A stretch of 21,565 nt of DNA from an uncultured Acidobacteriota bacterium (lineage in GTDB: Bacteria; Acidobacteriota; Polarisedimenticolia; J045), in NCBI GenBank assembly GCA_963702425.1, contig CAVPCQ010000002.1, forward strand, positions 1-21,565, read 5' to 3'. Each line of letters begins with the position of its first letter. Positions within the stretch are counted from its first letter, which is position 1. The notes under the pieces are model-generated. The model was given only the letters and a program-made list of their open reading frames with translations. It ran no database searches and was not told the DNA's origin. Made by a program: the position numbers and the translations under genes. Of the stretch, positions 2,450 through 21,565 are shown one piece after another.

Positions 2450-2456
2450 CGATCTC

Positions 2457-4592: not shown

Positions 4593-4600
4593 GGGGAACG

Positions 4601-5392: not shown

Positions 5393-5463
5393 CCAGGCCC
5401 CGCGCCGCGGCCGGCCCGCTGCGGCAGTCCGGCACCGCCCGTGACCGAACGGTGATCATCGCG

Positions 5464-5472
5464 TGGTACAAC
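5464..5472 (+). promoter_or_regulatory. Possible extended -10 promoter element for the radical SAM gene
   Basis: TGgTACAAC (TGn plus a -10-like hexamer) about 25 nt upstream of ATG 5498, followed by a GAGGG RBS. Confidence 0.35.
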
Positions 5473-5497
5473 AACCTCGAGCCTCGAGGGCCGTACC

Positions 5498-7066
5498 ATG
5501 CGGGCGTTGCTCGTCAACCCGGCCGTTCCGGACGCCTACTGGACCGGACGCGCATCGCTTCCCTTCGCTAGGCGACGCGCCCTCCTGCCGCCGTTGGGAC
5601 TGATCACCGTCGCGGCCCTGCTGCCGCCCAGCTGGAAGTGCCGGCTCGTCGACATGAACGTCGAGCCGCTCCGCGACGCCGAAATCGCCGCCGCGGACGT
5701 GGTCCTGGTCACCGGGATGCTGGTCCAGCGCGAGTCGATGCAGCAGGTCCTCCTCCGCTGCCGCGCGCTGGGTGTGCGTACGCTCGTCGGCGGACCATAT
5801 GCGACGGCGCTTCCCGGCGAGCTGGCGGCCGCGGATCACATCGTGCTGGGCGAGGCCGAGGAACTGGTCCCGCACGTCGCCGCCGCGCTGGAGCTGCGTG
5901 ACGCCGCGCGCATCTACCGCGAGGAGCGGAAGCCGGACCTCGCCGCCGCACCGGTGCCCCGCTTCGACCTGCTGGCTCGCAAGGCCTACCACCAGGCGGC
6001 GCTGCAGTTCTCGCGCGGCTGCCCGCACCGCTGCGAGTTCTGCGACATCGTCAGCCTGTTCGGCCACACGCCGCGCGTCAAGTCGCCGCCGCAGGTGGTG
6101 GCGGAGCTCGACGCGATCCGGGCGACCGGCTTCGCGGGAGACGTCTTCTTCGTCGACGACAACTTCATCGGCAACCGGAAGGCCGTTCGCTCGCTGTTGC
6201 CGCAGATCTCCGCCTGGCGCCGCCGGACCGGCGCCCGGCTGGGCTTCTACACCGAGGCCAGCATGGACCTCGCGGAGGACCCGGAGCTCGTCGACTCGAT
6301 GGTCGACGCCGGCTTCTCGGCCGTCTTCCTCGGGATCGAGACCCCCAATCCCGACGCCCTGCGCGAGACCGGAAAGCGGCAGAACCTCGAGGGCGACCCG
6401 ATCTCGCGCATCCACACGCTGCTTTCCCGGGGACTCGACGTGTGGGGCGGTTTCATCCTCGGCTTCGACAGCGACGGCCCCGACATCTTCGACCGGATGG
6501 TCGACTTCGTCCGGCGCGCGGCGATTCCGTACGCGATGGTCGGACTGCTCGGCGCGCCGCCAGGGACCGCGCTCTGGAAGCGGCTGAAGCGCGAGGGGCG
6601 GCTGCGGACGGGGACCGCGTTCGAGGGTGGCGACCAGTTCGGCCTCACGAACGTGATCAGCCGCCTGCCGGCCGAGCAGTTGCTCGAGGGGTACCACCGC
6701 GTGATGGACGCGCTCTACGCCCCGGCCGCCTACTTCCAGCGCTGTCGCGACAACCTCGGGCGCTGGAACGGTCGCCATGCCGGCGCGCGCCGCGTCTCGA
6801 TCGCCGAGCTGCGCTCGGGACTGCGCGCGGTGATCGCCCAGGGTTTCCGAGGCCGCTACCGGCGCGAGTACTGGCGCTTTCTCGGCTGGGCCGCGGCCCA
6901 CCAGCCCCGCAAGCTGGCGACCGCGATCCGGCACGCCGCAGCGGGCCACCACTACATCACGTACACCCGCGAGACCGTGCTGCCGGCGCTCGAGCGGACG
7001 CGCGCGGAGCTGATGGCTGCCGCGGCCTCAGCCGGGCGCCGGTGTCCCGAGCCTCCTGCCGCGTGA
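5498..7066 (+). CDS. Cobalamin-binding radical SAM protein (DUF4070-type; probable class B methyltransferase)
   Basis: N-terminal PPLGLITVAALLP and VGGPYAT B12-binding motifs, SRGCPHRCEFC (CxxxCxxC), FFVDDNFIGN, FLGIETP, GGFILGFDSD, and a C-terminal YRREYWRFL...GHHY extension. Confidence 0.92.
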   Translation: MRALLVNPAVPDAYWTGRASLPFARRRALLPPLGLITVAALLPPSWKCRLVDMNVEPLRDAEIAAADVVLVTGMLVQRESMQQVLLRCRALGVRTLVGGPYATALPGELAAADHIVLGEAEELVPHVAAALELRDAARIYREERKPDLAAAPVPRFDLLARKAYHQAALQFSRGCPHRCEFCDIVSLFGHTPRVKSPPQVVAELDAIRATGFAGDVFFVDDNFIGNRKAVRSLLPQISAWRRRTGARLGFYTEASMDLAEDPELVDSMVDAGFSAVFLGIETPNPDALRETGKRQNLEGDPISRIHTLLSRGLDVWGGFILGFDSDGPDIFDRMVDFVRRAAIPYAMVGLLGAPPGTALWKRLKREGRLRTGTAFEGGDQFGLTNVISRLPAEQLLEGYHRVMDALYAPAAYFQRCRDNLGRWNGRHAGARRVSIAELRSGLRAVIAQGFRGRYRREYWRFLGWAAAHQPRKLATAIRHAAAGHHYITYTRETVLPALERTRAELMAAAASAGRRCPEPPAA

Positions 7067-7069
7067 CGA

Positions 7070-9340
7070 TCAGGGCGAGGACGAGAGACCGAGACTCGTG
7101 AGGCGCTTGCGCGCCGCGTCGGATCCCTGTGCGGCTGCCCTCCGCCACGCGTCCGCGGCGCGCTCGCGCTGTCCGGCGGCCTCGCACAGCTCACCCAGGC
7201 GGAGCAGGAGCGTGGCATCGTAGGGGCGCCGCCGGGCGGCCTGCTCCTGCGCCTCCTGCGCGTCGCGATCGCGACCGAGCGTCTCGTAGGCGTCGGCCAA
7301 AGCCGCGTACGCGCGGGGGGAAAGCGGGCTCAGGCGTGCGGCGAGTTGGAGAATCGGTATGGCACGCGCGGTTTCGCCGCGCTGCAGATAGGCGAGAGCG
7401 AGTGCCAGCTGGGCGGGCGCCAGACGCGGATCGATCCGAGTCGCGCGCTCGAGCAGCGCGACGCCCTCGTCCTCGTGTCCCATCTGCATCAGCGTGAAGC
7501 CGGCGAAGAGCGCAGCGGGCGCGTCGTTCGGGCAGGACACCAGGGCCTTGTCGCGCAGTACGGCGAGCCCCTCCGCGCGGTTGCCGGTCGCGAGGAGGTT
7601 CTTGCCGTAGTAGTAGGAGAAACCAGGCTCGCCGGGTCGGGCCGCGAACGCCTCGGCCCAGAGGTCGCCCTCGGTGGTCGTCGGGAAATCGGACGGCGGC
7701 CGATCGAGTCGCAGGTTGAAGCGGACGATCTGGGCGAGGCGCGCGCCGGAGAAGAGCGGTCCCTTCGTCACGAGGTCGAGCCGGCGGGCGAACTCACCGA
7801 GTCGCGGATCGACCCAAGCCCCGTCGCGGCCCAGCAGGTGCGAGACGTAACCGGTGGGGACGATCCTCCTGAAGTGCCCCACGCGGAGCTTCGTGGCCGG
7901 CTCCTTCCCGGTCATGTCCCGGCACCACTCCTTCCACAGGTCATCGGACACGACGGCCGGCAGGCGGGCCAGCAGCGGATCGCCCAGACCGTGGAAATCA
8001 ACGACGTGTACCCCGGGCCCCGCGAAGAAGCCGAAGTACCCGACGGCTCCCTTGATCGCCAGCGGATGCCCGCAGCGGCGCGCCGCGAGCGCCTCGTGGA
8101 CCGGGTTGTCGAGCGGCTTCGGTCCCGGCAGACCATTGAGCCAGCCCGAGACGGGGAAGTAGAACGCCCGCTCGTCGGCGACGCCCCGAACGTCGACGAT
8201 GCTCTCCCGATCCAGGCCGTACTCCGCGCCGGAGAGGAGAGTCGGGGGCGAGGAGAGCAGGCCCACCGCCACGGCACCGGCCGCCGCGACGAGGCCCCAC
8301 GCCGGGCGCAGGGGAAGCGGGAAGCTGCTCAGCGCGAGCACCGCGACCAGGAGCGGGGCCGCGAGGAACCGCCCGCTCATGAAGTCGCCTCCGATGATCA
8401 CGACGTAGCCCAGGTAGAGAACGGCACCGCATGCGAGCGAGCGTGCCGGTGCGGTGCCACGCCAGAACACGATGGCCACGAAGAGCAGCGTGGCAGAGAG
8501 CGTCAACGGGTCATGGCGCAGCGATTCACCGAGGTAGTGCCATCCCTGCGCGACCCGCTCGGATGCCGGCACCCCGGTCGCGAGCTTCGCATAGGCCGTG
8601 TTCGGGACCGCGAACCCGTAGTAGAGCAGCGAGAACGCCGTCCAGACGACAAATGGAACGAAGCCGAGCGCGAGCGCTGCCCACTCGCGCCGCGTCCGCC
8701 GGCTCCACGCCATCCATGCCAGTGCGGGCACGACGAGCAGCACCGCGTCGTGCCGGCACAGGGCCACGAGCCCACCAAGTCCCGCCAGCAGCGTCAACGA
8801 CCGGAGTGGCTGACCGAGCCCTCGCAAGCGCCATGCGAAAGCCGCAAGCACGAGGTGCATCAGAGCATTCTCGAGGCCCGAGGTCGAGTAGTCGACGAAG
8901 GCGCGCGACGAGACGAGGATCGCAAGGACGGCCACACCCGTCGCCGGAGACGCCGCGACGCAGAAGCCGGCGATCCAGGCCGCAGCCAGGGACGCTGCGA
9001 TGCACAGGACGAGCGAGACGGAGTAGATGTCGCCGGTCAGGAGGTACCCCGGAATGAGAGCGAACGTCCAGAGCGGAGAGGTGAACGCCTGGACCCGCTC
9101 GTCCACATTCCAGCGCAGGCCATAGCCGTGGGCGGCGTTGTCGACGACACGGAAGGTGATGTAGGCGTCGTCGCACAACCATGCCGTGCGAACCAGGACG
9201 ATCAGGAACATCGCGAGGGAAAGCCATCGCAGGAAGCGGGCCGCCGTGTCGAGCGACTCCGGTGCGAGCAAGCGGGAGTTCCGGGGCCCCGGAGTCGAGA
9301 CGGAGCGCGAGAGGGCGCGCCGGACGCTTTGCTTCGCCAT
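7070..9340 (-). CDS. GT-C membrane glycosyltransferase resembling arabinofuranosyltransferase AftB, with C-terminal TPR repeats
   Basis: WLCDDAYITFRVVDN...NVDERVQAFTSPLW, DYSTSGLEN, PNTAYAK, GGDFMSGRFLAAP, GVADERAFY and RVGH match AftB-family motifs. Multiple TM helices, then TPR-like repeats (ERATRIDPRLAPAQLALALAY...). Start placed at ATG 9340 because a TATGAT -10 box lies 9 nt upstream; the track starts at 9364. Confidence 0.8.
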   Translation of the reverse strand: MAKQSVRRALSRSVSTPGPRNSRLLAPESLDTAARFLRWLSLAMFLIVLVRTAWLCDDAYITFRVVDNAAHGYGLRWNVDERVQAFTSPLWTFALIPGYLLTGDIYSVSLVLCIAASLAAAWIAGFCVAASPATGVAVLAILVSSRAFVDYSTSGLENALMHLVLAAFAWRLRGLGQPLRSLTLLAGLGGLVALCRHDAVLLVVPALAWMAWSRRTRREWAALALGFVPFVVWTAFSLLYYGFAVPNTAYAKLATGVPASERVAQGWHYLGESLRHDPLTLSATLLFVAIVFWRGTAPARSLACGAVLYLGYVVIIGGDFMSGRFLAAPLLVAVLALSSFPLPLRPAWGLVAAAGAVAVGLLSSPPTLLSGAEYGLDRESIVDVRGVADERAFYFPVSGWLNGLPGPKPLDNPVHEALAARRCGHPLAIKGAVGYFGFFAGPGVHVVDFHGLGDPLLARLPAVVSDDLWKEWCRDMTGKEPATKLRVGHFRRIVPTGYVSHLLGRDGAWVDPRLGEFARRLDLVTKGPLFSGARLAQIVRFNLRLDRPPSDFPTTTEGDLWAEAFAARPGEPGFSYYYGKNLLATGNRAEGLAVLRDKALVSCPNDAPAALFAGFTLMQMGHEDEGVALLERATRIDPRLAPAQLALALAYLQRGETARAIPILQLAARLSPLSPRAYAALADAYETLGRDRDAQEAQEQAARRRPYDATLLLRLGELCEAAGQRERAADAWRRAAAQGSDAARKRLTSLGLSSSP

Positions 9341-9552
9341 CGGGACGGCATCATACACGAGCACCCGGCGGCGACACCTGCCGAGCCGCTCCGAGGCGTC
9401 GTTCCGCAGCCACGGCCACGCTGGGCTATGCTATCCGCGCCGGTCCGCGTCGGCGCATGGCGCCGGCCCTTCGCGCGAGCGAGCGGGCGTGACGACGACG
9501 GTCGCCGGGGGGCCGCTTGGGGCGCAAGGGCAGTCCAGGAGGGGAGCGTCGC

Positions 9553-11307
9553 GTGACGCGCCGGGGGGAGTCCGACCGGCCCGCGGCCGCGAGGTCGCGC
9601 GTGCCGCCCGAGGTGCGGCGCTGGGCGTTGCTGGTGCTCGCGCTCGCGCTGGCGGCAACCGTCACGACGCTGCGCAACGGCTTCACGCTGGACACGCAAT
9701 TCGATCTGACCGCCAATGCGTACGTCACCAAACCGGGCGGGCTCGGTGCGCTCCTGACCTCCGACGCGTGGGAAGGAGCCGGCGTTCGCTCGGGTTTCTG
9801 GCGCCCGGTCGTCGGCCTCGCCAACTGGACCCTCTGGCGGATCGGGGGCGGACAGTCGGCCGTCTTCTTCGTCGCCAACATCCTGCTGCACGCGGCAATC
9901 TCCCTGCTCGTGCTCGGACTTGCGCTGCGCCTCGGGGCGACGACGACCGTGGCGGGCGCGGCCGCGGCCCTGTTCGCCGTGCATCCGGTTCACGCCGACG
10001 TCCTCGCCGGAAGCGTCGGGCTCAAGGACCTGCTGGCGGCGGTGTTCTTCCTTGCGGCGCTCTGGCTGTTCCTCGCGGCGCGGGCGCGACCGGCGGAGCC
10101 CGTGCGCCCGCTCGCGTGGGGGGCCGCATGCTTCGCGGCGGGCCTGCTCTCCAAGGAGAGCGTGCTGGCCTTGTTGCCCGCGCTCACGCTGCTGGATCTC
10201 GGCCGGGGAACGTGGCGCCAGGCGCGCGATCCCGCGCGACGGGTGGCGGTCTTCGGGCCCTACCTCGCGATGACCGCGATCGCAGTCGCCCGCTTCGTCG
10301 CGTCGCGCGCCGCCCTGGCGTCCGCGCGCGGCGTCGAGGGATTCGACCCCGCCGCCAACCCGCTGGTGCTGCTTCCGCCGGCAGCAAGGCCGCTGCACGC
10401 GCTCGGCCTGATCCCCGTCAATCTCGGGCTCCTGCTCTGGCCGGCGCGGCTCGCCCCGGACCGCAGCTTCAACGCGATCCCCGTCCGCGAGGGGTTGGAC
10501 CAGCCGGCAATTCTCGTCGGGGCGCTGCTCGCGGCGGCCTTTGTCGCCCTCGCCTATCTGGCGTGGAGCCGCGGCTTCGGCGTCCCATTCGCCGGCTTGG
10601 CGATCGCCGCCGCGGCCTACCTGCCGGTGTCGAACCTCGCGATTGCGATCCCGGGACAATTCGTCGCCGAGCGCTATCTGTACCTGCCGTCGGTCGGCTT
10701 CTGCATCGCCGCAGCTTGGATGCTGGCGCACCCGGCGGCGCCGCGACGCCTGGGAATCGCGCTCCTGGTGCTCGCCCTTGCGGCCGGACTGGCGCGGAGC
10801 AACGCGCGCAACGCGGAGTGGCGCGACAAGCTGACGCTGTGGACCGCGGCGCACCGCGTGGTCCCCGACAGCGTCGCCACCGCCCTGGCCGCGGCGGAGC
10901 AGCTGCGGCGCGCCGGCGACCTCGAGCGTGCGCGGGCCGTGATTGAGCGAGGACTGGCGGTCCACGCTCCGTCGCCGCTCACGCAGTCGATCGAAGATCG
11001 CTTCCGGCCCTCCCTTCTCCTGCTGAAGGGTCAGATCCTGCGCGACGGAGGCGACCTGGCCGGCGCCGAGCAAGCGATCCGGGCGGCGATGGCGGGACGC
11101 CCCGACCGGAACGACTGGCGCTCGGAGCTGGCCAACGTGCTGGCGATGGACGGGCGCCTCGAGGACGCGCTGCACGAGATCGAGGCCGCGCTGGACCGGG
11201 CCTCCGACGACGATGAGCGGCGCGTGCTCGAGCGGCGACGCGAAAAACTCCGACAATCGCTGATGGCGCCTCGATCCGATCCCCGGTCTTCCGGAAGCCG
11301 CCCTTAG
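9553..11307 (+). CDS. TMTC-like (DUF1736) GT-C protein O-mannosyltransferase homologue with C-terminal TPRs
   Basis: [67 protein letters not shown], then TPR helices. Start placed at GTG 9553 behind the RBS GGAGGGGAG; the track starts at 9517. A candidate -10 TATGCT lies at 9427-9432. Confidence 0.82.
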
Positions 11308-12908
11308 CCCCGGAGCAGGACCGTGTCGTGCCGCTCGTGGGCGTCGTCCGGGGCCGGGTGGTCGAGCGTGTAGTGCAGGCCGCGCGACTCCCGGCGGCGC
11401 GACGCGCTCTCGATGATCAGCGCGGCGACCAGCGCGAGGTTACGCAATTCGATCAGGTCGGGCGTGACCTTGTAGTCCCAGTAGTACTCGTTGATCTCGC
11501 GTTGCAGGTTTTCGATCCGGGCCGAGGCGCGCTCCAGCCGCTTGTCGCTGCGGACGATGCCGACGTAGTCCCACATCAGGCGGCGGATCTCATCCCAGTT
11601 GTGGTTGACGACGACCAGCTCGTCGGGATCGGCCGCGTCGCCGCTCTCCCACGCCGGGAGCGGCGGGACGACCCGGCCGAGAGCCTCGAGCCGCCCCGGT
11701 GCGAGCAGCGCCGCGCGATGCGCGACGACGACCGCCTCCAGCAGCGAGTTGCTGGCCAGCCGGTTCGCGCCGTGGATCCCGGTCTGGGCGACCTCACCCG
11801 CGGCGAGCAGGCCGGGAATCGAGGTCTCGCCGTCGACCGTGGCGACGACACCGCCGCACTGGTAGTGGGCGGCCGGCACGACCGGCAGCGGCTCCTTCGT
11901 CATGTCGAAGCCGAACTTCAGGCACTCCTCGTAGATGTTCGGGAAGCGCGAACGGATGAACGCGGCGTCGCGCTGAGTGATGTCCAGCAGGACGTGCTCG
12001 ACGCCCTGCTTCTTCATCTCGGCGTCGATCGCCCGGGCGACGATGTCCCGCGGGGCGAGGTCGGCCAGCTCGTGGTAACGCGCCATGAACGCGTTGCCGC
12101 GCAGGTCGCGCAGAACGGCTCCCTCGCCGCGTACCGCCTCGCTGATCAGGAACGACTTGGCCCTGGGGTGGAACAGGCAGGTGGGGTGGAACTGGATGAA
12201 CTCGAGGTTGGCGACCGGGGTCCCGGCCCGGTAGGCCATCGCCACGCCGTCGCCGCTCGCGATGTCGGGGTTGCTGGTGTAGAGGTAGACCTTGCCCGAT
12301 CCGCCGGTGGCGAGCAGCGTCAGCGGCGCGGCGAACAGGCCGACGGCGAGCGATCTCTCCTCCAGCGCATAGCAGCCGAGGCAGCGGTTCGGGCCGGGCA
12401 GGCCGCGCTTGGCCGAGGTGATCAGGTCGATCGCGATCACGTCCTCGTGGATCGTGATGTTGGGCTCGGCGGCGGCCGCGGCCAGCAGCGCGCGCTCGAT
12501 CTCGCGGCCCGTGATGTCACCGGCATGCAGCACGCGACGCTTGGAGTGCCCCCCCTCGCGCCCCAGGTCGAACTTTCCGGCCGCCCCCTCCTCGCGCGTG
12601 AACTTCACCCCCCAGTCGATCAACCGACGGACGACGGGAGGGCCCTCGGCGACGATCGTGCGGACGACCTCTTCGTTGCACAGCCCGGCCCCCGCGCGGA
12701 GCGTGTCCTGGACGTGCAGTTCGAGCGAGTCGTCGTCCCCCATGACGGCGGCGATCCCGCCCTGGGCGTAGTTGGTGCTGCTCTCCGCGCGGTGCTTCTT
12801 GGTGATGATCGCGACCCGGCCGTGCGGGGCGACCTCGAGCGCGAAGATCAGGCCGGCGATCCCGCTGCCGATCACCAGGAAGTCGACGTCGTGCCGTGCG
12901 GTGTCCAT
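11304..12908 (-). CDS. nadB: L-aspartate oxidase
   Basis: FAD-binding [102 protein letters not shown]. Its stop overlaps the convergent gene's stop at 11304-11307. Confidence 0.97.
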
Positions 12909-12975
12909 GGCGCGCGATTATGAGGCAGGTTGGCTGCGCCGTCCGCGGGGCGGTTTTCGGCGCGCCCGCGCCCCC

Positions 12976-13005
12976 TTGACAGCCCGCCCTCGCCCGCCGG
13001 AACCT
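12976..13005 (+). promoter_or_regulatory. Possible promoter for the acyltransferase-PAP2 pair
   Basis: Perfect TTGACA (12976-12981), 18-nt spacer, weak -10 GAACCT (13000-13005), 8 nt before GTG 13014. Confidence 0.35.
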
Positions 13006-13013
13006 CCTGCCCG

Positions 13014-13901
13014 GTGCCCCTCTTCCGGCGACACGACGGCGACCTCGTCCGCGGCGAACCGCCGATGCGCCGCATCATGCCCTACGTGATGCGCACCCGG
13101 AACGAGAGCGTGGTCTTCCACGACTCGGTCTACCGGATGCCCGCGGCGCTGGACTGGATGAAGGCCTACAACCGCGCCCACGCCGAGCGGGCGACTCTCT
13201 TCACCCTCTTCGCCTACGCCTGCGGTCAGGCGCTTCACGCGCGTCCCGAGCTGAACCGCTTCGTCTCGGGCGGCCGGCTCTACCAGCGGCGCGGCGTGCA
13301 GATCGCGTTCCTGGTCAAGCGCGAGCTGAGCGACCAGGGGGTCGGCACGACGGTCAAGGTGGAGATCGTGCGCGAGGAGGCGTTCCCGGCATTCGTCGCA
13401 CGGATCACCCGGATCATCGAGGAAGCGCGTGGCCCGGACCGCGCGGTCGACAAGGAGACCGCGCTGGTCATGAAGCTCCCCGGCCCGATGGTGCGGGGGC
13501 TCGTCGCGGTCGCTCGCCTGCTCGATGCCTGGAACCTCTACCCGCGCTTCATGACCGCGAACGACCCGATGTACGCCAGCCTCTTCCTGGCCAATCTCGG
13601 CTCCGCCGGGATCAGCGACGCCTACCACCACCTCTACGAGTACGGAACCGTCTCGATCTTCGGGACGATGTCGGCGCTGCGCCGGACGCCGTTCGTCGAG
13701 GGGGACCGGGTCGTGGTGAGCGAGGGGCTGGCGATCCGCTGGACCTTCGACGAGCGAATCCACGACGCCTTCTACGCCGCCCGCTCGCTGGGGATCGTGA
13801 AGCGGGCCCTCGAACACCCGACCCGCTACCTCGGCGCGCCGGAGGGGGAGCCGGTCTTTGCGCCGGGGGTGCGCCCCGAGGCGACAGACCCGCCGCCATG
13901 A
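13014..13901 (+). CDS. Stand-alone 2-oxoacid dehydrogenase E2-type (CAT-like) acyltransferase catalytic domain protein
   Basis: RPELNRFV, ASLFLANLGSAGI and IRWTFDERIHDAF correspond to the E2 motifs P.lN, tisNlG and tfDHRiiDG. No lipoyl domain. Start probably GTG 13014 (MPLFRRHDGDLV); the track's 12930 extension is low-complexity and spans the promoter. Confidence 0.78.
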   Translation: MPLFRRHDGDLVRGEPPMRRIMPYVMRTRNESVVFHDSVYRMPAALDWMKAYNRAHAERATLFTLFAYACGQALHARPELNRFVSGGRLYQRRGVQIAFLVKRELSDQGVGTTVKVEIVREEAFPAFVARITRIIEEARGPDRAVDKETALVMKLPGPMVRGLVAVARLLDAWNLYPRFMTANDPMYASLFLANLGSAGISDAYHHLYEYGTVSIFGTMSALRRTPFVEGDRVVVSEGLAIRWTFDERIHDAFYAARSLGIVKRALEHPTRYLGAPEGEPVFAPGVRPEATDPPP

Positions 13902-14731
13902 GGCCCTCCGAACGGCTGACCCTGGTCGCGGTGCTCGTGCTCTCAGCCGTCACTGCGGCGGTGCGGCCGGAGGGGAGCGGGCTGCGCCTCGCGGCCTTCC
14001 TCGGGATCGCAGCGACGACCGTGCTGCTCGCGCGCGTGCCGTCCGGCGGGGGCGCCGGCTTCCTGCGCGACTGGCTGCCCGTCGGCGCGGTGCTCGCCGT
14101 CTTTCTGCTGCTGCAGCCGATCATCGAGGCCGCGGTGCCGTGGCGGCTGGACGCCGCGCTGGCCGCGCTGGACGCGCGCTGGCTCTCCCGGCTCGTCGAC
14201 GCCTGGCGCGGCGCCTTCGGCCGCCCGGCCGCCTTCAGCGACGCGATCTACCTGGCCTACGCTTCCTACTACCTGCTGCCGATCATCGTGGCCGCCGTGG
14301 CGTGGCGGCGGGACCCGTCGACTTTCGAACGGACCGCCTTCGCGCTGCTGCTCGGCTTCTACCTGACGTTCCTCGGCTACCTGGTGCTGCCGGCGTCGGG
14401 GCCGCGCCCGCCTGTCGCGGAAGAAGCCCGCCTGCTCGGTGGCGGCGCACTCAGCGACAGCGTGCGGGCCTTCCTGCACGCTGCGGAGTCGACGACGCTC
14501 GACGCCTTCCCGAGCGGCCACACCGCGATCGCCGTCCTCTCGGGGGTGCTCGGCTCGCGCCTGCTCGGGCGCGCTGCGTCCGTCGCGCTCTGGTCCTGGG
14601 CGGCGATGATCGTGTTCGCGACGGTCTACATCCACGTCCACTACGCGGTCGACGTGCTGGCGGGGCTGGCGCTGGCGGCGTTCGTGCTCGCCGTGACGCC
14701 GCGGCCGGCGCGGATTCTCCGGGGGGAGTGA
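13898..14731 (+). CDS. PAP2-superfamily membrane protein, Aur1/IPC-synthase-like (PAP2_3)
   Basis: Multiple TM helices; FLRDWLP, YASYY, YLVLPASGPR, DAFPSGHTA, ATVYIHVHYAVDVLAG. ATGA overlap with the upstream stop suggests translational coupling. Confidence 0.87.
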   Translation: MRPSERLTLVAVLVLSAVTAAVRPEGSGLRLAAFLGIAATTVLLARVPSGGGAGFLRDWLPVGAVLAVFLLLQPIIEAAVPWRLDAALAALDARWLSRLVDAWRGAFGRPAAFSDAIYLAYASYYLLPIIVAAVAWRRDPSTFERTAFALLLGFYLTFLGYLVLPASGPRPPVAEEARLLGGGALSDSVRAFLHAAESTTLDAFPSGHTAIAVLSGVLGSRLLGRAASVALWSWAAMIVFATVYIHVHYAVDVLAGLALAAFVLAVTPRPARILRGE

Positions 14732-14765
14732 CGGCGCCCCCCGGCGCAGAGATAAGATGCCGGCC

Positions 14766-15497
14766 ATGAAGACGCTGATGCGGGTGCCCCTCGTCGCGTG
14801 TCTCGTCCTGGCCGGTGCGCCGATCGTTCTCGCCGATGCGGCCGGCCCCCACTACTTCACCTTCTACGCCCAGCAGGCCTGGCCGAAGCAGACCAACACC
14901 AACAACCAGATCCAGGAGATCAACCGGACCTTCGGGACCGACTTCGACGACTGGAGCGACGTCGCGAATCTGAGCGTCGGGGCGCATCTCTTCTGGCGCG
15001 TCTCGCCGCACTGGAAGCTCGGGATGCAGGTCGACTACAGCCGAGGGTCGATCGGCGGGAGCGAGAAAGTCCAGACCGAGGCCGGCAAGGCCACGCTCAG
15101 CTTCGAGCAGGAGTACAGCGTCTACGCCGACCTCTACGCGGTGGCGCACTGTCTCCCGTGGCCGGAGTGGAAGGCGATCCGGCCGTTCGTCTACGGCGGC
15201 ATCGGCTTCGGCTACGAGAGCGACACGACGACGCTCGACCTGAAGAACCAGTTCGTCGATGCCGGGCTGCGGGTCGAGAACGACGGCTGGTTCCCGACCT
15301 ACACCGCCGGGATCGGGATGGACGTGCCGTTCTCATCCAAGACGGCGTGGTACTTCGAGGTCGGCGTGGCGTACGTCTGGTCGCGGATGACGAACGAGGT
15401 GCCGGCGACCGGTGCGCTGGCCCCGGCGCCGGAGGTGACGGCCGACACCGACTTCACGGGGCCCAACTACTGGCTGGGGGTTGGGCTCACGTTCTGA
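14766..15497 (+). CDS. Small outer-membrane beta-barrel protein (OmpW/OmpA-like barrel)
   Basis: Signal peptide MKTLMRVPLVACLVLAGAPIVLA, amphipathic strands, RPFVYGGIGFGY, C-terminal YWLGVGLTF. Start placed at ATG 14766, 7 nt after TAAGAT; the track starts at 14757. Confidence 0.82.
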   Translation: MKTLMRVPLVACLVLAGAPIVLADAAGPHYFTFYAQQAWPKQTNTNNQIQEINRTFGTDFDDWSDVANLSVGAHLFWRVSPHWKLGMQVDYSRGSIGGSEKVQTEAGKATLSFEQEYSVYADLYAVAHCLPWPEWKAIRPFVYGGIGFGYESDTTTLDLKNQFVDAGLRVENDGWFPTYTAGIGMDVPFSSKTAWYFEVGVAYVWSRMTNEVPATGALAPAPEVTADTDFTGPNYWLGVGLTF

Positions 15498-16215: not shown

Positions 16216-18579
16216 TCAGGAGGCCAGGGGTCCGGGTCTGTCCCCGTCGCGCGCCCGGTCTCGGCCTTCGGCGTTCGCCACGGTTCTTCCCGCCCGGCGG
16301 TCCGGCTCCGCTCGTCCGGTCAGCCGCTCGTTGCGGTAGGTCCGCCCGCCGAGGGTGAAGTCCAGGTCGAGCGGTGCCCGGCCGCGGACCCGCATCGTGC
16401 CGCCGTGCTCTCCGCGCTGGTGGTGGTGGCGGCAGAGGGTGACGCGATTTCCCGGTGAGTCGTCCCCGTCGCGCGAGCGGTACCGGACGTGGTGATCCTC
16501 CAGGTTGGCATGCGCGGTGCAGCCGGGGGCCATGCAGCGCCAGCCGTCCCGGGCGTAGATCCCCACCCGGCCGCGGTGCTCGTCGTGGATCGCGGCGTAC
16601 GAGGTGAGGAGCGCGACCAGGCCCAGCCAACGTGCGTCGAAGAAGGCGATGTCGGCGGAAAACGTCTGGACACTCCGGGAGGCGGCGCCGAGCGCCCCGA
16701 GGAAATCCGCGGCCCGGGAGAACGGGAGGACGAGCAGCAGCGGGACGACGTCATGGGACCGCTCGGCGGCGAGCTGCGCACAAGTGCGCAGTCGCGTGGC
16801 GCTCTCGCCGGGCCTGCGGCCGAGCGACCCGTGCCAGTCGGCATCCGGCACCGGATCGGCCGGATCGGCCGTACGCAACAGCCGCCGCTCCCGCAGCAGG
16901 GCGCGCTCGTCGTCGAGGCGCTTGACCGTCACCGTGGCGGCGTGTTCGGCCCACCAACGTTCGAGCGGGAGGGGGACGGGCTTCCGGCCGAGGCCGAGCA
17001 CGCGCACGACGCGCAGTGCGGCGGCGGGAGAAAGCCGACGCTTGTCCCACGCCTGCCTGACGACGGGGAGGTGCTCCAGCGCACTTGCCAGCAGCGCAGC
17101 GTCTTCCGCGCTCGAGCGCGAAAGGCCGAGGCGGGCCTCGGAATAGTGCCGGAGGCTGTTGAAGCCGAGCGTGCGCCAGGCTCGGCGGGCGCGCAGTTGG
17201 GCCAGCAACTCCCCCAGGACCCCCCGCACCTCCTGCTCGAGCGCGAGCAGGGCCTGGAGGCGCCGGGCCGCAGCCGTAGAGCAGATGTCCCCGAGCCCTG
17301 ACCGTAGCGCCCGCGCCCGCTGCGCCAACTCGCCGGCGCGCGCGATGACCTGCGCGGCTGCAGCGTCGAACTCCGATCCGGTCGGGGGCCCGGGCGGAAA
17401 ACGTTCGGACGCGGCGTCGGCCTCCGAGCCGGCTTCCGAGCCGGCCTCCGAGCCGGCTTCCGAGCCGGCCTCCGAGCCGGCCTCCGAGCCGGCTTCCGAG
17501 CCGGCCTCCGAACCGGCCTCCGAGCCGGGAAGGGATCCCGGCGGAAAACGTCTGGACGCAGCGTCGCGCCGCTGCCGCTCAGCGTCCGCGTTCCGGCGCC
17601 GGTCCCACGCCGTCTCGCGCTCCTCATCGTCGAGTGCGCGAACGGCGGCGAGACGATCGAATGCGCTCGTCATGTCCGGCCGGACGGCGAGCCCCGAGGC
17701 CCGCGCCTCGGCGACCAGCGCATCGGTGAAGTCGGACGTCGAGGTGCGCTGCCCGACGACCCGTTCGTGCAGACGCCGGATCTCGTGGAATGCGGCGACC
17801 ACCGGTGCGGGGAGGTCGATCCTCAGCCGGAGCAACGGCTCCCGGTCCTCATCGACCAGGGGGTCGCCGTCGAGGCTGGGCGCCTCGCCATCCGTGGACT
17901 CAGCGTTCGGGTGCGAGCCGTCATCCCCGGGTAGCACGTCGTCGGAAGGGCTCTCTATGCGGATCCCGATCGACTCCAGGTAGCGCCGGTTCCATGGAAG
18001 CGCAGCGGCCTCACGAAAGGCCGGGTCCGAAAGCAGTTCCGGCGACAGATCCGCGATCCACTCGAGATGCGGATCGGGCGGTCTCAACGACGAATCGGGC
18101 CGGCCTGTCGCGTCGACCGGATGCCGCGCGCCCGCGGCCCGCGCCCGCCGGAGATGCTGTCGAAGCTCGCGCACGCTGACCGCGCGGCCCAGCGCGATCC
18201 AGCTCGGGAGAGCGTCGCCCGGCGGCTCGAAGCGCGCGATCGCCACGGCGGCGACGGTGCCGAGCGGCAGCTTGCCGTCGGAGCCTTCGACAGCGGCGAG
18301 CAGCCGATCCGTGGTCCAGGTCGAGCGTCCGAGCGCCGCCATGTCGCGCAGCCAGCGCGCAGTCCGCCCCAGTTGTTCGCGGGCGAAGTCCTCGGCCCGC
18401 GCGAAGCCGAGGCCCGTCCAGGCGCGGTCGCGGCAGGCCTCCGACGCGGTGATCGCGATCGGAAGCGTCATGCGGTGCAGGGCGGCGACGAGCGCCGCGG
18501 CGAGCGCGTCGAGCTGCTCGATCGATCCGCCCGATGGGACCTGGCACGGAGAAGGGGTCTCGGCTCCTGCAACGCGCAT
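16216..18579 (-). CDS. Large HNH endonuclease (DUF222-like helical N-terminus, C-terminal HNH); true 5' end uncertain, possibly frameshifted from ATG 18655
   Basis: C-terminal RDGWRCMAPGC...LEDHHVRYRSRDG...NRVTLCRHHH is a Zn-binding HNH motif. Two internal copies of an AWxxLGF...E.LG module and a (GSEA)9 tract. Confidence 0.85.
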   Translation of the reverse strand: MRVAGAETPSPCQVPSGGSIEQLDALAAALVAALHRMTLPIAITASEACRDRAWTGLGFARAEDFAREQLGRTARWLRDMAALGRSTWTTDRLLAAVEGSDGKLPLGTVAAVAIARFEPPGDALPSWIALGRAVSVRELRQHLRRARAAGARHPVDATGRPDSSLRPPDPHLEWIADLSPELLSDPAFREAAALPWNRRYLESIGIRIESPSDDVLPGDDGSHPNAESTDGEAPSLDGDPLVDEDREPLLRLRIDLPAPVVAAFHEIRRLHERVVGQRTSTSDFTDALVAEARASGLAVRPDMTSAFDRLAAVRALDDEERETAWDRRRNADAERQRRDAASRRFPPGSLPGSEAGSEAGSEAGSEAGSEAGSEAGSEAGSEAGSEADAASERFPPGPPTGSEFDAAAAQVIARAGELAQRARALRSGLGDICSTAAARRLQALLALEQEVRGVLGELLAQLRARRAWRTLGFNSLRHYSEARLGLSRSSAEDAALLASALEHLPVVRQAWDKRRLSPAAALRVVRVLGLGRKPVPLPLERWWAEHAATVTVKRLDDERALLRERRLLRTADPADPVPDADWHGSLGRRPGESATRLRTCAQLAAERSHDVVPLLLVLPFSRAADFLGALGAASRSVQTFSADIAFFDARWLGLVALLTSYAAIHDEHRGRVGIYARDGWRCMAPGCTAHANLEDHHVRYRSRDGDDSPGNRVTLCRHHHQRGEHGGTMRVRGRAPLDLDFTLGGRTYRNERLTGRAEPDRRAGRTVANAEGRDRARDGDRPGPLAS
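17419..17526. repeat. Tandem repeat, 9 x 12 bp (consensus GGCYTCCGAGCC), encoding (GSEA)9 in the HNH protein
   Basis: Nine contiguous units counted directly; the variants (C/T at unit position 4, one G>A) are synonymous in the minus-strand frame. Confidence 0.97.
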
Positions 18580-18660
18580 CGCCCGTCGCGTCGGCGGGTG
18601 CGGCCTCGATCGTCGCGGTGGCCGGATCGGCCTGCATCAAGGAGCTGCACCCCATGGAGT

Positions 18661-18705
18661 CCTCCTCGCATCGAGAAGTCTACAAGACGGAAGTTTGTCT
18701 GTCAA
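18661..18705 (-). promoter_or_regulatory. Near-consensus sigma70 promoter and RBS upstream of the HNH locus
   Basis: Minus strand: TTGACA (18705-18700), 17-nt spacer, TAGACT (18682-18677), then AGGAGG (18666-18661), 5 nt, ATG at 18655. Confidence 0.8.
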
Positions 18706-18850
18706 TGATTGATGTCGACATGTCCCATCTCCGGGAAGTTCCGTTGCGGCGCACGAGGAGGAGTCGACAACGAGTCGATCGGCATGGAGTGGAAGCAGCA
18801 GCCGGCGGATCCGCGTGACGCACTCACGCGGAGCGGCGCGCGGGCGAAAC

Positions 18851-18970
18851 GCGGCGCGATCTCCTGAAGCGGTCGCCGGTGCGGCACGTACTCTCCAAGC
18901 CGCGGCCGGTGCGGCGATCTCTCTCGAGACGACTGTCGGTACGGCACGAGCAACCGAGCCAACCGTCGAG
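18851..18970. repeat. Degenerate tandem repeat, 4 x 30 bp
   Basis: Units start at 18851, 18881, 18911 and 18941 with RCGGC and end in gccggt, gccggt, gtcggt and gtcgag. Confidence 0.6.
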
Positions 18971-19295
18971 GCGCGGCCAGGCTCGCCGCGCGCCGTCGGC
19001 GCGCCGCGTCGACCACCGAGGTGCGCCCCAGGCGGGGCCGCGGCGCCGGATCGCCTCCTGGAACGGGGCAGCCGGCCCGGGGCCCGCGGGCCGCAGCGGT
19101 CCGAAAGGCGGCCGCGGGGGAGCGCGGCGGCGGCCGGCGGTGCCATGCCGGGCGTCACGGCCGCGGGCCCCCGGGCGCTACCGATCGCAGGAACGCCCCG
19201 AGAATGTCCGCCAATGCCCGCGGGCGTCCGCCCGCCCAGCCGGCCGATGTTCCCAGAAATCCCTATCCCATAAACAGTTAGGATCGAGAAATCAT

Positions 19296-19325
19296 TTGAC
19301 GGAGCGGGTAACTTCTCAGTAAATT
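19296..19325 (+). promoter_or_regulatory. Putative sigma70 promoter for the Fe-S oxidoreductase
   Basis: TTGACG (19296-19301), 18-nt spacer, TAAATT (19320-19325) within an AT-rich patch (about 19255-19335). Confidence 0.6.
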
Positions 19326-19420
19326 AGCTTCGTTCAAGCTCGACCGGCCCGCGCAATCGGTGGGCCGGGAGCAGTTGCCGCGGCCCGGGGTGGGCCGCGC
19401 GCGCCGGATGGGGCGTACCG

Positions 19421-21565
19421 ATGTCCTTCGGGTGGGAGCAGGGAGTCCTGGCACTCCTCATGGCGGGGAGCGCAGCGCTCTTCGTCCGCACCCTCTCCAT
19501 GAAGCTGTCCTGGGTTGCCGCCGGGGCGGTGGACCGTCCGCGCACCGACCACGCCGGCCGGCGGCTCGCGGAGACGCTGCGCGAGGTCTTGCTCCAGACG
19601 CGGGTGATCGGCGGGCGGCCCGTCGTCGGGGTGCTGCACGCGATCGTGATGTTCGGCTTCGTGCTCTTCGCGATCGAGACGGTCGACCACTTCGCGCACG
19701 GCTTCGGCCTGAAACTGCTCGAACCGCTGCTCGGGCCCGCCTACCCCGCCTACCGCGTGGCGATGGCGGTGGTCGCGGTGCTGGTCAGCGTCGCGATCCT
19801 GGGCCTGGCCTTCCGGCGATTCGTGCTGGTGAAGTCGTCGCCCGACCCGAAGTCGTGGACCTCGGCGGTGGTCGCGCTGTTCATCCTGGTGCTGATGCTG
19901 ACCTATCTGAACGGGATGCGCGCCGAACCGTTCGCGCCGCGCGCCAACTGGTGGGTCCACGCGCTGGTCATCCTGGCCTTCCCGTACCTGATCCTGAAGA
20001 GCAAGCACTTCCACATCCTGCTGGCGCCCGCGGCGATTTTCACGCGGCTCCCGCGGCTGGGCGACTACGCCCCGATCGACCTCGAGAAGGTGATGTCCGA
20101 GGAGGCGACGGACGTCACACTCGGGCTCGAGGCGGTCAAGGACATCCCGTGGAAGACGCGCCTCGACTTCCTGTCGTGCGTCGAGTGCCGCCGCTGCACC
20201 GACAACTGCCCGGCCCACGTGGCCGGGAACGTGCTCGACCCGCGCGGCTTCATCCTGGCCGGCCGGCGCGCGCTGGCCGCGGGGAAGCCGGACGACGTCG
20301 TCATCGGGCCGATGGCCGAGGCCGCCCCGCCCGTGCTCACCGAGGAGGCGCTGGGGGTCTGCGTCACCTGCGGCGCCTGCGAGTACGGCTGCCCCGTGGG
20401 AGTCGAGCACCTGCAGCTACTGATCGGCACGAAGCGGGCGCAGACCCTGGCCAGCGGCCGCGGCGTCGTGGCAGCCGACTTCTTCCACGCGATCGAGTCG
20501 ACCGGCAACGCCCTCGCGCGGCCGAAGTCCGACAGGGCCACGCTCCTGAAGGAGCTGGAGCTGCCGCGCTTCACCGGCGCGGAGGGCGAGTGGCTGCTCT
20601 GGTTGGGCTGCATCTGGGGCTCCAACCGCGACCAGCGGCCCGCCGTCGCGGCGTTCAAGCAACTGCTCGACGCGGCGCAGGTCCCCTACGGCGTGCTGGA
20701 CGAGGAGGTCTGCTGCGGCCACCACTCGCGCCGGCAGGGGGAGGAGGTCCAGTACCAGGACCTGGCGCGCCGGACGATCGAGCTGCTGCGCGAGAAGAAG
20801 GCCCGGAAGATCGTCACCGCCTGCCCGCACTGCCTGCACACGATGCGGCGCGAGTACCCACAGCTCGACGGCGGCGCGGCGGACCTGGAGATCGTGCACC
20901 ACGCGCAGCTTCTGGAGCGGCTCGCGACCGACCGCCGGCTGCCGCTGAAGGCCGTGGCGGGCGCGGGGGAGGCCGTCGCCTTCCACGACCCCTGCTACCT
21001 CGCGCGCTACGAGGGCGAGACCGCCGCGCCGCGCGCGGTGCTCGCGGCGGCGGGCGTGTCGCTGGTGGCCCTGCCGCACGAGCGCGCGCGCACGCTCTGC
21101 TGCGGCGGCGGCGCGGCCGGGTTCGCGCGCGAGATCAGGCATGGCAAGCGGGTCGATCCGCCGCGGCGCGACGAAATCGTCGCGTCGGGTGCGAAGCGGC
21201 TGGTGACCGCCTGCCCGGAGTGCCGGATGATGCTCGACGCCGCGGTCGAGCAGACACAAGACATCGCCGAGGTCCTCGCGGCGTCGCTGGTGCGCGTCGA
21301 GCCCGTCTCGAAGGCCCCGGCCGGAGGACATGACATCGGGGAAGGAGAAACGATGTACAAGCCGGTCCAAGACGACCCCGAGCTCGAAGCGAAGATCCTG
21401 CAGATGTTCGAGCATCACCCGCAGGAGGAGCTGCAGCTCCTCGACATCGCCGGCAAGGCGCACGTGAGCTGCAAGCTGTGCGACCTGCGCCACGCCGCCG
21501 ACCACCTGGTCGAGGAAGGCCAGCTCTGCCTGTGCCGGCACGGCGGCGGGCGCTACTACAAGCTG
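19421..21565 (+). CDS. Membrane-anchored heterodisulfide-reductase-like Fe-S oxidoreductase (FadF/HdrF-like) with an in-frame C-terminal winged-helix-like extension; runs off the window end
   Basis: Not in the ORF track because it has no stop inside the window; I translated 715 codons by hand from MSFGWEQGVLALL. TM region with His residues (GVLHAIVMFGF, WWVHAL, SKHFH), ferredoxin motifs CVECRRCTDNCP and CVTCGACEYGCP, and two CCG domains (WLGC...EVCCG...TACPHC; FHDPCYLAR...LCCGGG...TACPEC). Confidence 0.92.
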   Translation, partial: MSFGWEQGVLALLMAGSAALFVRTLSMKLSWVAAGAVDRPRTDHAGRRLAETLREVLLQTRVIGGRPVVGVLHAIVMFGFVLFAIETVDHFAHGFGLKLLEPLLGPAYPAYRVAMAVVAVLVSVAILGLAFRRFVLVKSSPDPKSWTSAVVALFILVLMLTYLNGMRAEPFAPRANWWVHALVILAFPYLILKSKHFHILLAPAAIFTRLPRLGDYAPIDLEKVMSEEATDVTLGLEAVKDIPWKTRLDFLSCVECRRCTDNCPAHVAGNVLDPRGFILAGRRALAAGKPDDVVIGPMAEAAPPVLTEEALGVCVTCGACEYGCPVGVEHLQLLIGTKRAQTLASGRGVVAADFFHAIESTGNALARPKSDRATLLKELELPRFTGAEGEWLLWLGCIWGSNRDQRPAVAAFKQLLDAAQVPYGVLDEEVCCGHHSRRQGEEVQYQDLARRTIELLREKKARKIVTACPHCLHTMRREYPQLDGGAADLEIVHHAQLLERLATDRRLPLKAVAGAGEAVAFHDPCYLARYEGETAAPRAVLAAAGVSLVALPHERARTLCCGGGAAGFAREIRHGKRVDPPRRDEIVASGAKRLVTACPECRMMLDAAVEQTQDIAEVLAASLVRVEPVSKAPAGGHDIGEGETMYKPVQDDPELEAKILQMFEHHPQEELQLLDIAGKAHVSCKLCDLRHAADHLVEEGQLCLCRHGGGRYYKL
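21353..21565 (+). CDS. Possible separately initiated small Cys/His-rich winged-helix protein, in frame with the upstream oxidoreductase; 3' end outside the window
   Basis: RBS GAAGGAGA (21341-21348) before ATG 21353. Peptide MYKPVQDDPELEAKILQMFEHHPQEELQLLDIAGKAHVSCKLCDLRHAADHLVEEGQLCLCRHGGGRYYKL shows a three-helix plus beta-wing pattern. Confidence 0.55.
   Translation, partial: MYKPVQDDPELEAKILQMFEHHPQEELQLLDIAGKAHVSCKLCDLRHAADHLVEEGQLCLCRHGGGRYYKL

Follow-up and report, generated by a model that had tools for sequence, protein, structure and literature searches.

In mycobacteria, syntrophs, and many soil phyla, beta-oxidation is linked to respiration by the membrane oxidoreductases EtfD and EMO, which were structurally characterized only in 2025-2026. 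In the text of PMC13083937, EtfD of Mycobacterium smegmatis (PDB 9OJN) is described as a wire from electron-transferring flavoprotein (ETF) to menaquinone, built of five transmembrane (TM) helices with a b haem (ligands His78 and His241), two cubane clusters, and two CCG domains. The same text mentions homologues in Acidobacteriota, gives FadF and DgcB little or no C-terminal extension, predicts that the C-terminal region of mycobacterial EtfD contacts ETF, and states that the ETF binding site on EtfD is not known. Syntrophus EMO is described as having a NarI-like domain with three haems and as binding ETF through EtfB (10.64898/2026.08.18.745454). Here, we analyzed a gene of this type in a stretch of DNA of 21,565 nucleotides (the window) from an uncultured Acidobacteriota bacterium (assembly GCA_963702425.1, contig CAVPCQ010000002.1; Polarisedimenticolia, J045). 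The gene reads in frame into a small C-terminal domain, the tail, which is preceded by a Shine-Dalgarno (SD) sequence and an ATG of its own.

For such an internal start, the closest described system is ArcB-C, for which an SD sequence and a start codon at the C-terminal-domain boundary of membrane-bound ArcB are reported as verified by mutation and Western blot (10.1101/520783). For the small domain, it is DsrD, a small winged helix whose gene directly follows dsrAB and, in Bilophila, is fused to dsrB; according to the text of PMC8794893 it was long presumed to be a regulator, and is an allosteric enzyme activator whose DNA binding is only non-specific. Our favored reading of the window gene, to which we give about an even chance, is that an EtfD/EMO/FadF-type enzyme has been fused to a winged-helix partner or accessory module that is probably made as two products and does not look like a dedicated transcription factor.

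Results

An enzyme gene that continues into a small C-terminal domain

A single open reading frame (ORF) of 715 amino acids (aa), 19421-21565 on the + strand, reaches the last base of the window with its 3' end open. The window is the entire contig, so that the end of the ORF is set by the contig and not by biology; a contig extension search found no continuation on any other contig of the same assembly. In same-genus relatives the stop codon lies 11 codons beyond the window end, which gives a tail of 82 aa and a total length of 718-726 aa. Past the sequence DIAEVLAASL, which ends the second CCG domain (CCG2) at 21289, there is no stop codon, and the order of the junction is CCG2 end, a 21-codon linker, SD and ATG, and then 71 codons that include CKLC, CLC, and six His. 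An earlier reading, made from the letters of the window and its translated ORFs (the sequence-only reading), had described the read-through, the internal ribosome-binding site with its ATG, and these Cys and His residues, and all of them are borne out by the window sequence. The parts of the gene are as follows.

19421..21565 (+): fused ORF comprising an EtfD/EMO-type membrane Fe-S oxidoreductase, a linker, and a winged-helix tail (from the ORF, Pfam, and relatives)
19421..20065 (+): membrane domain, about aa 1-215, a putative NarI/HdrE-like cytochrome b anchor; His73, His90, His180, and His198 invariant in 23 sequences
20168..20404 (+): two cubane [4Fe-4S] motifs, aa 250-328, with C253/256/259/263 and C314/317/320/324 (Fer4_9, Fer4_8, Fer4_17)
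20594..20845 (+): CCG domain 1 (CCG1), aa 392-475, with invariant C397, C431, C432, C468, and C471 (PF02754)
20978..21238 (+): CCG2, about aa 520-606, with invariant C525, C560, C561, C598, and C601 (PF02754)
21290..21352 (+): stop-free linker, aa 624-644; always in frame, and more variable than any other part of the junction
21342..21347 (+): SD core AAGGAG, 5 nt before the internal ATG, in GAA/GGA codons; 14% variable columns over -18 to +3
21353..21355 (+): in-frame ATG where the two domains meet, corresponding by homology to the start of the free-standing gene; Met kept; in the split locus L040 this ATG is the start codon
21353..21565 (+): winged-helix tail, 71 of its 82 aa present; predicted fold H1, short beta, H2, H3, and beta-hairpin wing

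The sequence-only reading had looked to sequencing reads and close relatives for a stop codon in 21290-21352, and none was seen in either. In a six-frame search of the window's genome (an assembly that is 91% complete, with about 70% GC) and 40 relatives, the tail was matched only in that genome and four same-genus genomes, and the junction stop is absent from all four of the latter. A DNA search for related loci, seeded with a five-sequence alignment that favors genus-clade-like tails and so under-samples the split clades (L040 alone was recovered), found the read-through in 4/4 metagenome loci and 5/6 genome loci. The loci with the read-through include two near-identical metagenome contigs and three named Acidobacteriota metagenome-assembled genome (MAG) records; these may overlap the same-genus genomes, and no independence was assumed for them. 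In three independent public DNA runs, there are contigs that span 21290-21352 and show no indel; their substitutions (21292, 21295, 21311/21312, 21319, 21325, and 21331) are synonymous or are Ala/Thr changes as in the relatives, none of them makes a stop, and no difference is listed in 21332-21367. Because these three runs bridge the junction without an indel or a stop-making change, the junction is not an assembly artefact. The read-through is real: it does not stem from faulty assembly and did not arise by accident only recently.

Upstream of the junction, the enzyme ORF is broken in L039 (and G001:C174) and in L041, with stop-to-stop frames of 545 and 323 aa. In L041 a second frame carries the N-terminal part. 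In each case the interruption is a frameshift or an assembly error, and the junction itself is continuous.

The enzyme part belongs to the EtfD/EMO/FadF type

Pfam placed PF02754 (CCG) in two stretches of the protein (E 9.6e-26) and Fer4_9, Fer4_8, and Fer4_17 (4Fe-4S dicluster domain) above their cut-offs; no Pfam family matched the membrane domain. Four TM His and 18 cluster Cys are invariant in a 23-sequence alignment. The sole strong match among solved structures is 9ojn_A (E 4e-72), the M. smegmatis EtfD introduced above, in an alignment that covers residues 300-614 and also 170-290. In this alignment His73 falls in the haem-ligand region of EtfD (...GIAHFF...), KSKHFH is paired with HSKHLH, and each of the two cubane and two CCG motifs meets its EtfD counterpart. 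By these alignments the enzyme is classed as an EtfD/EMO/FadF-type membrane oxidoreductase, and its predicted membrane anchor as haem-b binding.

Tail-less relatives from other genera (6/6) stop 0-4 residues after the conserved end of the enzyme. They agree with FadF and DgcB in supporting the premise of the sequence-only reading that FadF/HdrF-type enzymes normally end after their CCG domains.

The window's genome also encodes a canonical ETF-QO (PF05187, E 2e-33; C20:140202-140495). Together with the EtfD-type enzyme, this gives the genus two candidate ETF-to-quinone routes. Sulfite reductase (NIR_SIR), DsrC, and DsrD (the last searched to E<=1) have no match in the same genome, and the window enzyme is therefore not a Dsr module. 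Neighboring genes vary by lineage (HlyIII, beta-lactamase, SDR, 5'-nucleotidase, and GFO/IDH/MocA), which identifies the enzyme gene with its tail as the unit.

The tail is a winged helix without a family model

The tail had been proposed to be a winged helix, and the predicted structure, Foldseek, and an exhaustive structural comparison all support this. The predicted fold is H1-beta-H2-H3-beta-hairpin (helices at tail residues 9-21, 29-35, and 42-55; strands at 58-63 and 66-71), with a pLDDT (predicted local distance difference test score) of 78 overall and 85-88 in the core, from a 14-sequence alignment. Foldseek returned generic winged-helix matches only (best E 1.4e-3; TM-score 0.6-0.7), with the Fur N-domain, Rpc34, SmtB/CzrA/CadC, Z-alpha, and DsrD as neighbors. 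The exhaustive comparison gave 104 chains at Z>=8 (top Z 10.4), all of them winged helices, and these include the purely protein-binding winged helices of cullin (WHB), ESCRT-II, and Rpa2.

Sequence searches were far less productive. No Pfam family was above threshold for the tail (best EutK_C, E 0.01-0.02), NCBIfam gave no family, and the best match of a tail profile to PDB sequences had an E of 1. A HMMER scan of 1.84 billion representatives gave 15 matches, including one repeat-protein false positive and one fragment. By these searches, the tail belongs to a sequence-orphan winged-helix family for which Pfam and NCBIfam have no model. Membership of the DsrD family, hinted at by ESM Atlas with 160-165 shared features (below the guide value of 170), was rejected, as 0/14 tails match PF08679 at E<=10.

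In the window tail, H3 begins with CKLC, and the first wing strand contains CLC. The full set of four Cys is strictly kept in the genus clade and in its nearest relative, P0019, and nowhere else; some of the Cys are present in P0020, P0021, and P0025, and elsewhere they are absent (replaced by, e.g., SGRLS and LLVLQ). Being confined to so narrow a clade, the Cys cannot define the function of the family. In the predicted model, CxxC is at the start of H3 and CxC just past its end, so that the four Cys of one monomer are unlikely to form a single site. The comparison with FeoC made in the sequence-only reading, as a Cys-ligated Fe-S sensor, is not supported, given the replacement of the Cys outside the genus clade and P0019 and the lack of any FeoC or metal-sensor family match at E<=10.

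The window tail is acidic (isoelectric point about 5.2), and the H3 consensus, L-x-D-L-K/R-H-A-A-D-H-L-V-E, has a net negative charge. The net charge of the core is negative in 33 of the 39 fused tails (median -3). Basic cores were found in half of the reliable free forms (5/10), all from one clade or on long branches; a free-standing "MLSAVSTG" clade (P0011, P0053, P0054, and P0058) and P0008 have cores of +2 to +6. Judging from these charges, free and fused forms may have diverged in their binding target.

Fused and split forms have alternated

Homologues had been expected to show whether the two parts occur fused or split, and both states were found. The tails of L035, L036/L042, and L041 are 52-55% identical to the window tail and fused in frame. 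In L040, from a Holophagales MAG, the genes are split: the enzyme ends ...AAGG-TGA, and after 17 nt that contain GGAGGA the ATG of the small gene follows in another frame. Among the HMMER matches were fragments that run directly from the CCG2 end into the tail, as well as free proteins of 73-95 aa. In a collection clustered at 90%, all 23 "longer" proteins that match the tail profile carry CCG domains; the full-length ones have 704-726 aa and are labeled merely "Fe-S oxidoreductase". The same collection holds 33 shorter matching proteins. Contigs of 8-27 kb carry free forms of 73-76 aa, of which some have been annotated as hypothetical proteins in their own right; these forms represent two or three split clades. 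Free calls from contigs below 2 kb are unreliable, as P0039 is identical to the tail of fused P0019, and 19 were left unscored.

A tree of the tails (68 rows, 81 columns, many forks unresolved), on which 39 fused and 10 reliably split forms were scored, requires at least four fused/split changes, three without two uncertain fragments and 12 if the short-contig calls are counted as split. For the 49 reliable rows, a single fused clade was rejected by the approximately unbiased (AU) test (delta lnL 48, p 2e-5), the tested group having been named after a tree had been seen. In a tree of the enzyme part the clades mirror those of the tail, and the tail-less sister-genus enzymes form a separate clade; the backbone is unresolved. 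By these trees and loci, the fused and split states have switched several times. The separate small gene, still separate in some Acidobacteriota, is taken as the ancestral state. A recent loss of a stop codon, offered in the sequence-only reading as the simpler alternative, has the timing wrong: the fusion is kept even between clades with tail identities of only about 50%, and it was gained or reversed on several occasions.

In the genomes searched, the tail family is rare and patchy, its fused form being one of a few soil and sediment bacteria. Sequencing-run shares were below 0.5, and no habitat is claimed from them. In a phylum sample, six of 401 genomes had a match at E<=1e-3, and strong matches came only from the window's genome and G004, of the same genus; the remaining matches (four genomes, E 3e-5 to 6e-4) were taken for winged-helix domains of no relation. 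One of 151 genomes in a sample of the order Holophagales had a match, first-look candidates having been scored in part, so that misses are possible.

Among the fused forms, P0020 (719 aa) alone lacks the junction Met (...EEGRP-T-RGTVEQ...), and of the four Cys it retains only two. Its sequence suggests that it may be a fully consolidated fusion.

The internal Shine-Dalgarno sequence and start codon are conserved

The SD, GAAGGAGA, lies at 21341-21348 and is followed by AACG and then by the ATG at 21353-21355. Internal in-frame ATGs in the window's genome have AGGAG or GGAGG at -16 to -4 in 158 of 7,602 cases (2.1%) and a 6-mer SD in 72 of 7,602 (0.95%), and the 16S rRNA of this genome carries a canonical anti-SD tail. 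Since only 1-2% of such ATGs have an SD of this kind, the combination in the window is more than expected by chance.

The SD is invariant in five aligned sequences of the genus. Across seven genus-clade sequences, 33% of the columns are variable at the CCG2 end and 77% in the linker, against 14% in the 21 nt from -18 to +3 (SD, spacer, and ATG) and 18% in the tail. The linker has 18, 21, or 26 codons in the genus clade, and the frame is always kept. The codons that spell the SD are rare in this gene (GAA, 7 of 48 Glu; GGA, 4 of 53 Gly). In three further fused lineages, GGAGG or AAGGAGG stands 4-5 nt before the ATG, and the linker peptides differ. The junction Met is kept in 32 of 33 fused-type proteins, always after Gly/Glu/Lys/Asp-rich residues, and is invariant in 14/14 aligned tail sequences. 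This pattern of conservation suggests that the fused frame and the start signal both appear to be maintained under selection.

No sigma-70-like promoter was found inside the ORF or before the tail, so that a free copy of the tail would have to come from internal initiation within the one mRNA. When the junction was folded as RNA in four lineages, the z-scores were -0.5 to +0.4, i.e., no structure signal. One 170-nt metatranscriptome contig covers 21344-21507, which cannot show transcription or a start. Because selection has preserved the SD and ATG within the fused genes, two products are probably made from the locus. Of the earlier proposal that one locus yields two products, the internal SD and ATG thus stand as real and conserved, while the second product itself is something that we infer from them; from sequence, two products from one gene are plausible.

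Upstream region and genomic context

Upstream of the fused gene, a promoter scan found two sites, where 50 shuffles of the sequence gave a mean of 0.0. The element listed for this region is:

19296..19325 (+): sigma-70-like promoter TTGACG-18 nt-TAAATT, 9/12 consensus matches; its AT-rich block is conserved in five genus-clade sequences

The AT-rich block (19255-19368) is almost invariant in those five sequences, within a genome of about 70% GC. An imperfect inverted repeat, TAACTT-N6-AAATTA, lies over the -10 element of this promoter, and the leader can form a GC hairpin (CCGGCCC at 19344-19350 with GGGCCGG at 19362-19368). Rfam had no match in 18600-19500 at E<=1. The L036/L041/L042 lineage has a conserved AT-rich upstream block of its own with GTAAAC-N15-GTTTAC, and a comparison by eye revealed no obvious operator common to the two blocks.

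On the - strand, 16216-18579 is an ORF of 787 aa with a (GSEA)x8 repeat and a His/Cys-rich HNH-like motif at its C terminus, and with no Pfam match at E<=1e-3. The gene upstream of the enzyme in the genus-clade loci L037 and L038 is of the HlyIII family, unlike in the window, and the 787-aa ORF may be an insertion. Further away (371-15497), Pfam identified a GSDH-like dehydrogenase, a TonB-dependent receptor, a B12-binding radical SAM protein with DUF4070, two TPR proteins, a 2-oxoacid dehydrogenase acyltransferase-like gene, and a PAP2 phosphatase. An L-aspartate-oxidase/fumarate-reductase-type flavoprotein is encoded at 11304-12908 (-). The context genes in 371-15497 have no evident link to the fused gene.

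Discussion

When two proteins occur now fused and now split, this is classically read as a sign that they work in physical contact, and the repeated switching seen here points to the small protein as a partner of the enzyme or an accessory module to it. In the mechanism that we favor, the enzyme would pass electrons from a cytoplasmic donor, which by its family is most likely ETF, to the quinone pool. The small winged-helix protein, once presumably a separate gene 17 nt downstream with its own SD, would have been fused in frame to the enzyme C terminus, where it would act as a partner or accessory module by binding the enzyme or its donor. The locus would then give a tethered copy and, by internal initiation, a free copy, as arcB gives ArcB-C.

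Several observations weigh against this account. Most EtfD-like enzymes, those of the sister genera among them, function without a tail. As to the donor, the 91%-complete genome of the window has no match to PF01012 or PF00766, and no ETF gene adjoins the enzyme gene in any locus scanned. Pairs of etfBA genes are present on other contigs in three of the four same-genus genomes and in the Holophagales genome, and the missing ETF is probably an assembly gap. Among the best fold matches DNA-binding regulators predominate, one free-standing clade has basic cores (+2 to +6) and could bind nucleic acid, and the imperfect inverted repeat in the conserved AT-rich promoter could be an operator. The retention of SD and ATG could partly be a leftover of several separate fusions, and P0020 has lost the Met. 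Finally, several of the "free" calls come from short contigs and are unreliable, as in the case of P0039.

It is unlikely, in our judgment, that the free copy is a sequence-specific DNA-binding regulator, possibly one that senses redox state or metals through its Cys and His, with the tethered copy coupling or sequestering it. Such a regulator, for which PutA would be an analogy, accords with the winged-helix fold, whose top structural neighbors are mostly Fur, ArsR, and MarR, with an internal SD and ATG that could supply a diffusible copy, with the promoter block and its TAACTT-N6-AAATTA, and with the existence of a basic free-standing clade and of CxxC and CxC in the genus clade. It is at odds with the acidity of the fused tails (33/39 cores negative; isoelectric point about 5.2 in the window) and the net negative H3 consensus, with Cys that are not conserved over the family, and with searches in which no transcription-factor family was above threshold and FeoC was absent among the matches at E<=10. 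Nor do the upstream blocks of the genus clade and L036/L041/L042 share an obvious operator, and DsrD is a precedent for an enzyme activator whose fold and gene position need not imply regulation. The DNA-binding regulator proposed by the sequence-only reading has thus gained no positive evidence. We regard as improbable, too, a plain consolidated fusion in which only the full-length protein matters, the tail being its C-terminal domain and the SD and ATG being vestiges that also encode a flexible Gly/Glu-rich linker. Gly/Glu-rich linkers are common, the frame is kept through three linker lengths, P0020 dispenses with the junction Met, and several independent fusions would each begin with an intact SD. 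Yet the adjoining linker has turned over (77% variable, with indels) while the SD-spacer-ATG stretch is the most conserved (14%), the SD is spelled with GGA and GAA, rare codons in this gene, the L036/L041/L042 lineage likewise keeps SD and ATG, and the Met is retained in all but one of the 33 fused proteins.

A thiol switch or substrate peculiar to the genus clade, in which CxxC and CxC form a redox-active dithiol pair whose reduction or oxidation is carried out at the Hdr-like noncubane cluster site, so that the tail is a tethered redox substrate or sensor, appears very unlikely. DsrK, which acts on DsrC, would be a parallel. The strict retention of the four Cys in the genus clade and P0019 and the Hdr-type five-Cys motif in CCG1 of the window enzyme are in its favor, as is the description of CCG domains as disulfide-reducing sites in Hdr (10.64898/2026.08.18.745454). 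The same source describes the CCG clusters of EMO and EtfD as serving electron transfer, which counts against it. So do the absence of the Cys from most of the family, which means that they cannot be the family function, the lack of DsrC, DsrD, or sulfite reductase in the window's genome, and the location of the Cys pairs at opposite ends of H3, which in the model makes a single four-Cys site in a monomer unlikely. A more far-reaching version of the partner reading, which we rate as quite unlikely, would make the tail a two-form regulatory subunit of the ETF-to-quinone step: the tethered copy would gate ETF docking or cluster access, the free copy would signal to other enzymes or to DNA, and the genus would add a CxxC/CxC thiol switch set by the Hdr-like cluster. 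If this were true, the redox state of quinone and ETF would be written onto a diffusible protein.

The enzyme thus belongs to a known family, and what appears to be new, as judged from sequence and literature, is the winged-helix module, its split and fused history, and its retained start signal. A full-text literature search found no description of such a C-terminal module, of the separate gene, of the repeated fusion, or of the retained start. The word "winged" is absent from the text of the EtfD paper (PMC13083937) and of the EMO preprint (10.64898/2026.08.18.745454). A conserved accessory module at the position proposed to contact ETF, present in fused or split form depending on the lineage, would be a handle on how ETF docks and how this step is controlled. 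Comparison of the relatives also makes the locus a clear example of two fused genes in which selection has preserved the ribosome-binding site and start codon of the second, and hence a candidate for the expression of two products. The tail, finally, defines a small protein family without a Pfam or NCBIfam model.

Comparison with known systems

FeoC and the Fur/ArsR metal sensors have the general winged-helix fold in common with the tail, and the genus-clade tail also has Cys and His. The tail differs from them as a single 82-aa domain without the dimerization and metal-site domains of Fur/ArsR; FeoC has no tail match at E<=10, and the Cys are not conserved in the tail family.

DsrD (PF08679, about 78 aa) is the best analogy for the tail, as a small winged helix encoded directly downstream of a redox enzyme and fused to the enzyme C terminus in one lineage. 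It is also a structural neighbor (1ucr_A, TMq 0.65 and TMt 0.71; 1wq2_A, TMt 0.79), and 18 of the 30 nearest ESM Atlas clusters to the tail are DsrD. DsrD is Lys-rich and basic, whereas the window tail is mostly acidic, and its partner, DsrAB, is different from the window enzyme, whose genome has no dsr genes.

EtfD and EMO (M. smegmatis and S. aciditrophicus) and their homologues FadF (B. subtilis) and DgcB (P. aeruginosa) have the same domain order as the window enzyme. CCG1 has the Hdr-type CC in the window enzyme and CT in EtfD. The C termini differ: that of the window enzyme is a folded 82-aa winged-helix domain, as predicted, with its own SD and ATG and with a separate gene as its counterpart in some relatives. 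The tail nevertheless sits at the same position as the C-terminal region of EtfD that is proposed to contact ETF.

ArcB-C, from E. coli arcB, resembles the window gene: within the coding sequence of a membrane-anchored protein, an SD-like sequence and a start codon stand exactly where the C-terminal domain begins and are conserved across species. In the case of ArcB, a diffusible C-terminal domain is made besides the full-length protein. In arcB this was demonstrated by Ribo-RET and Western blot, whereas in the window internal initiation is suggested by the sequence. Unlike that of ArcB-C, the internal start of the window gene would be the inherited start of a formerly separate gene.

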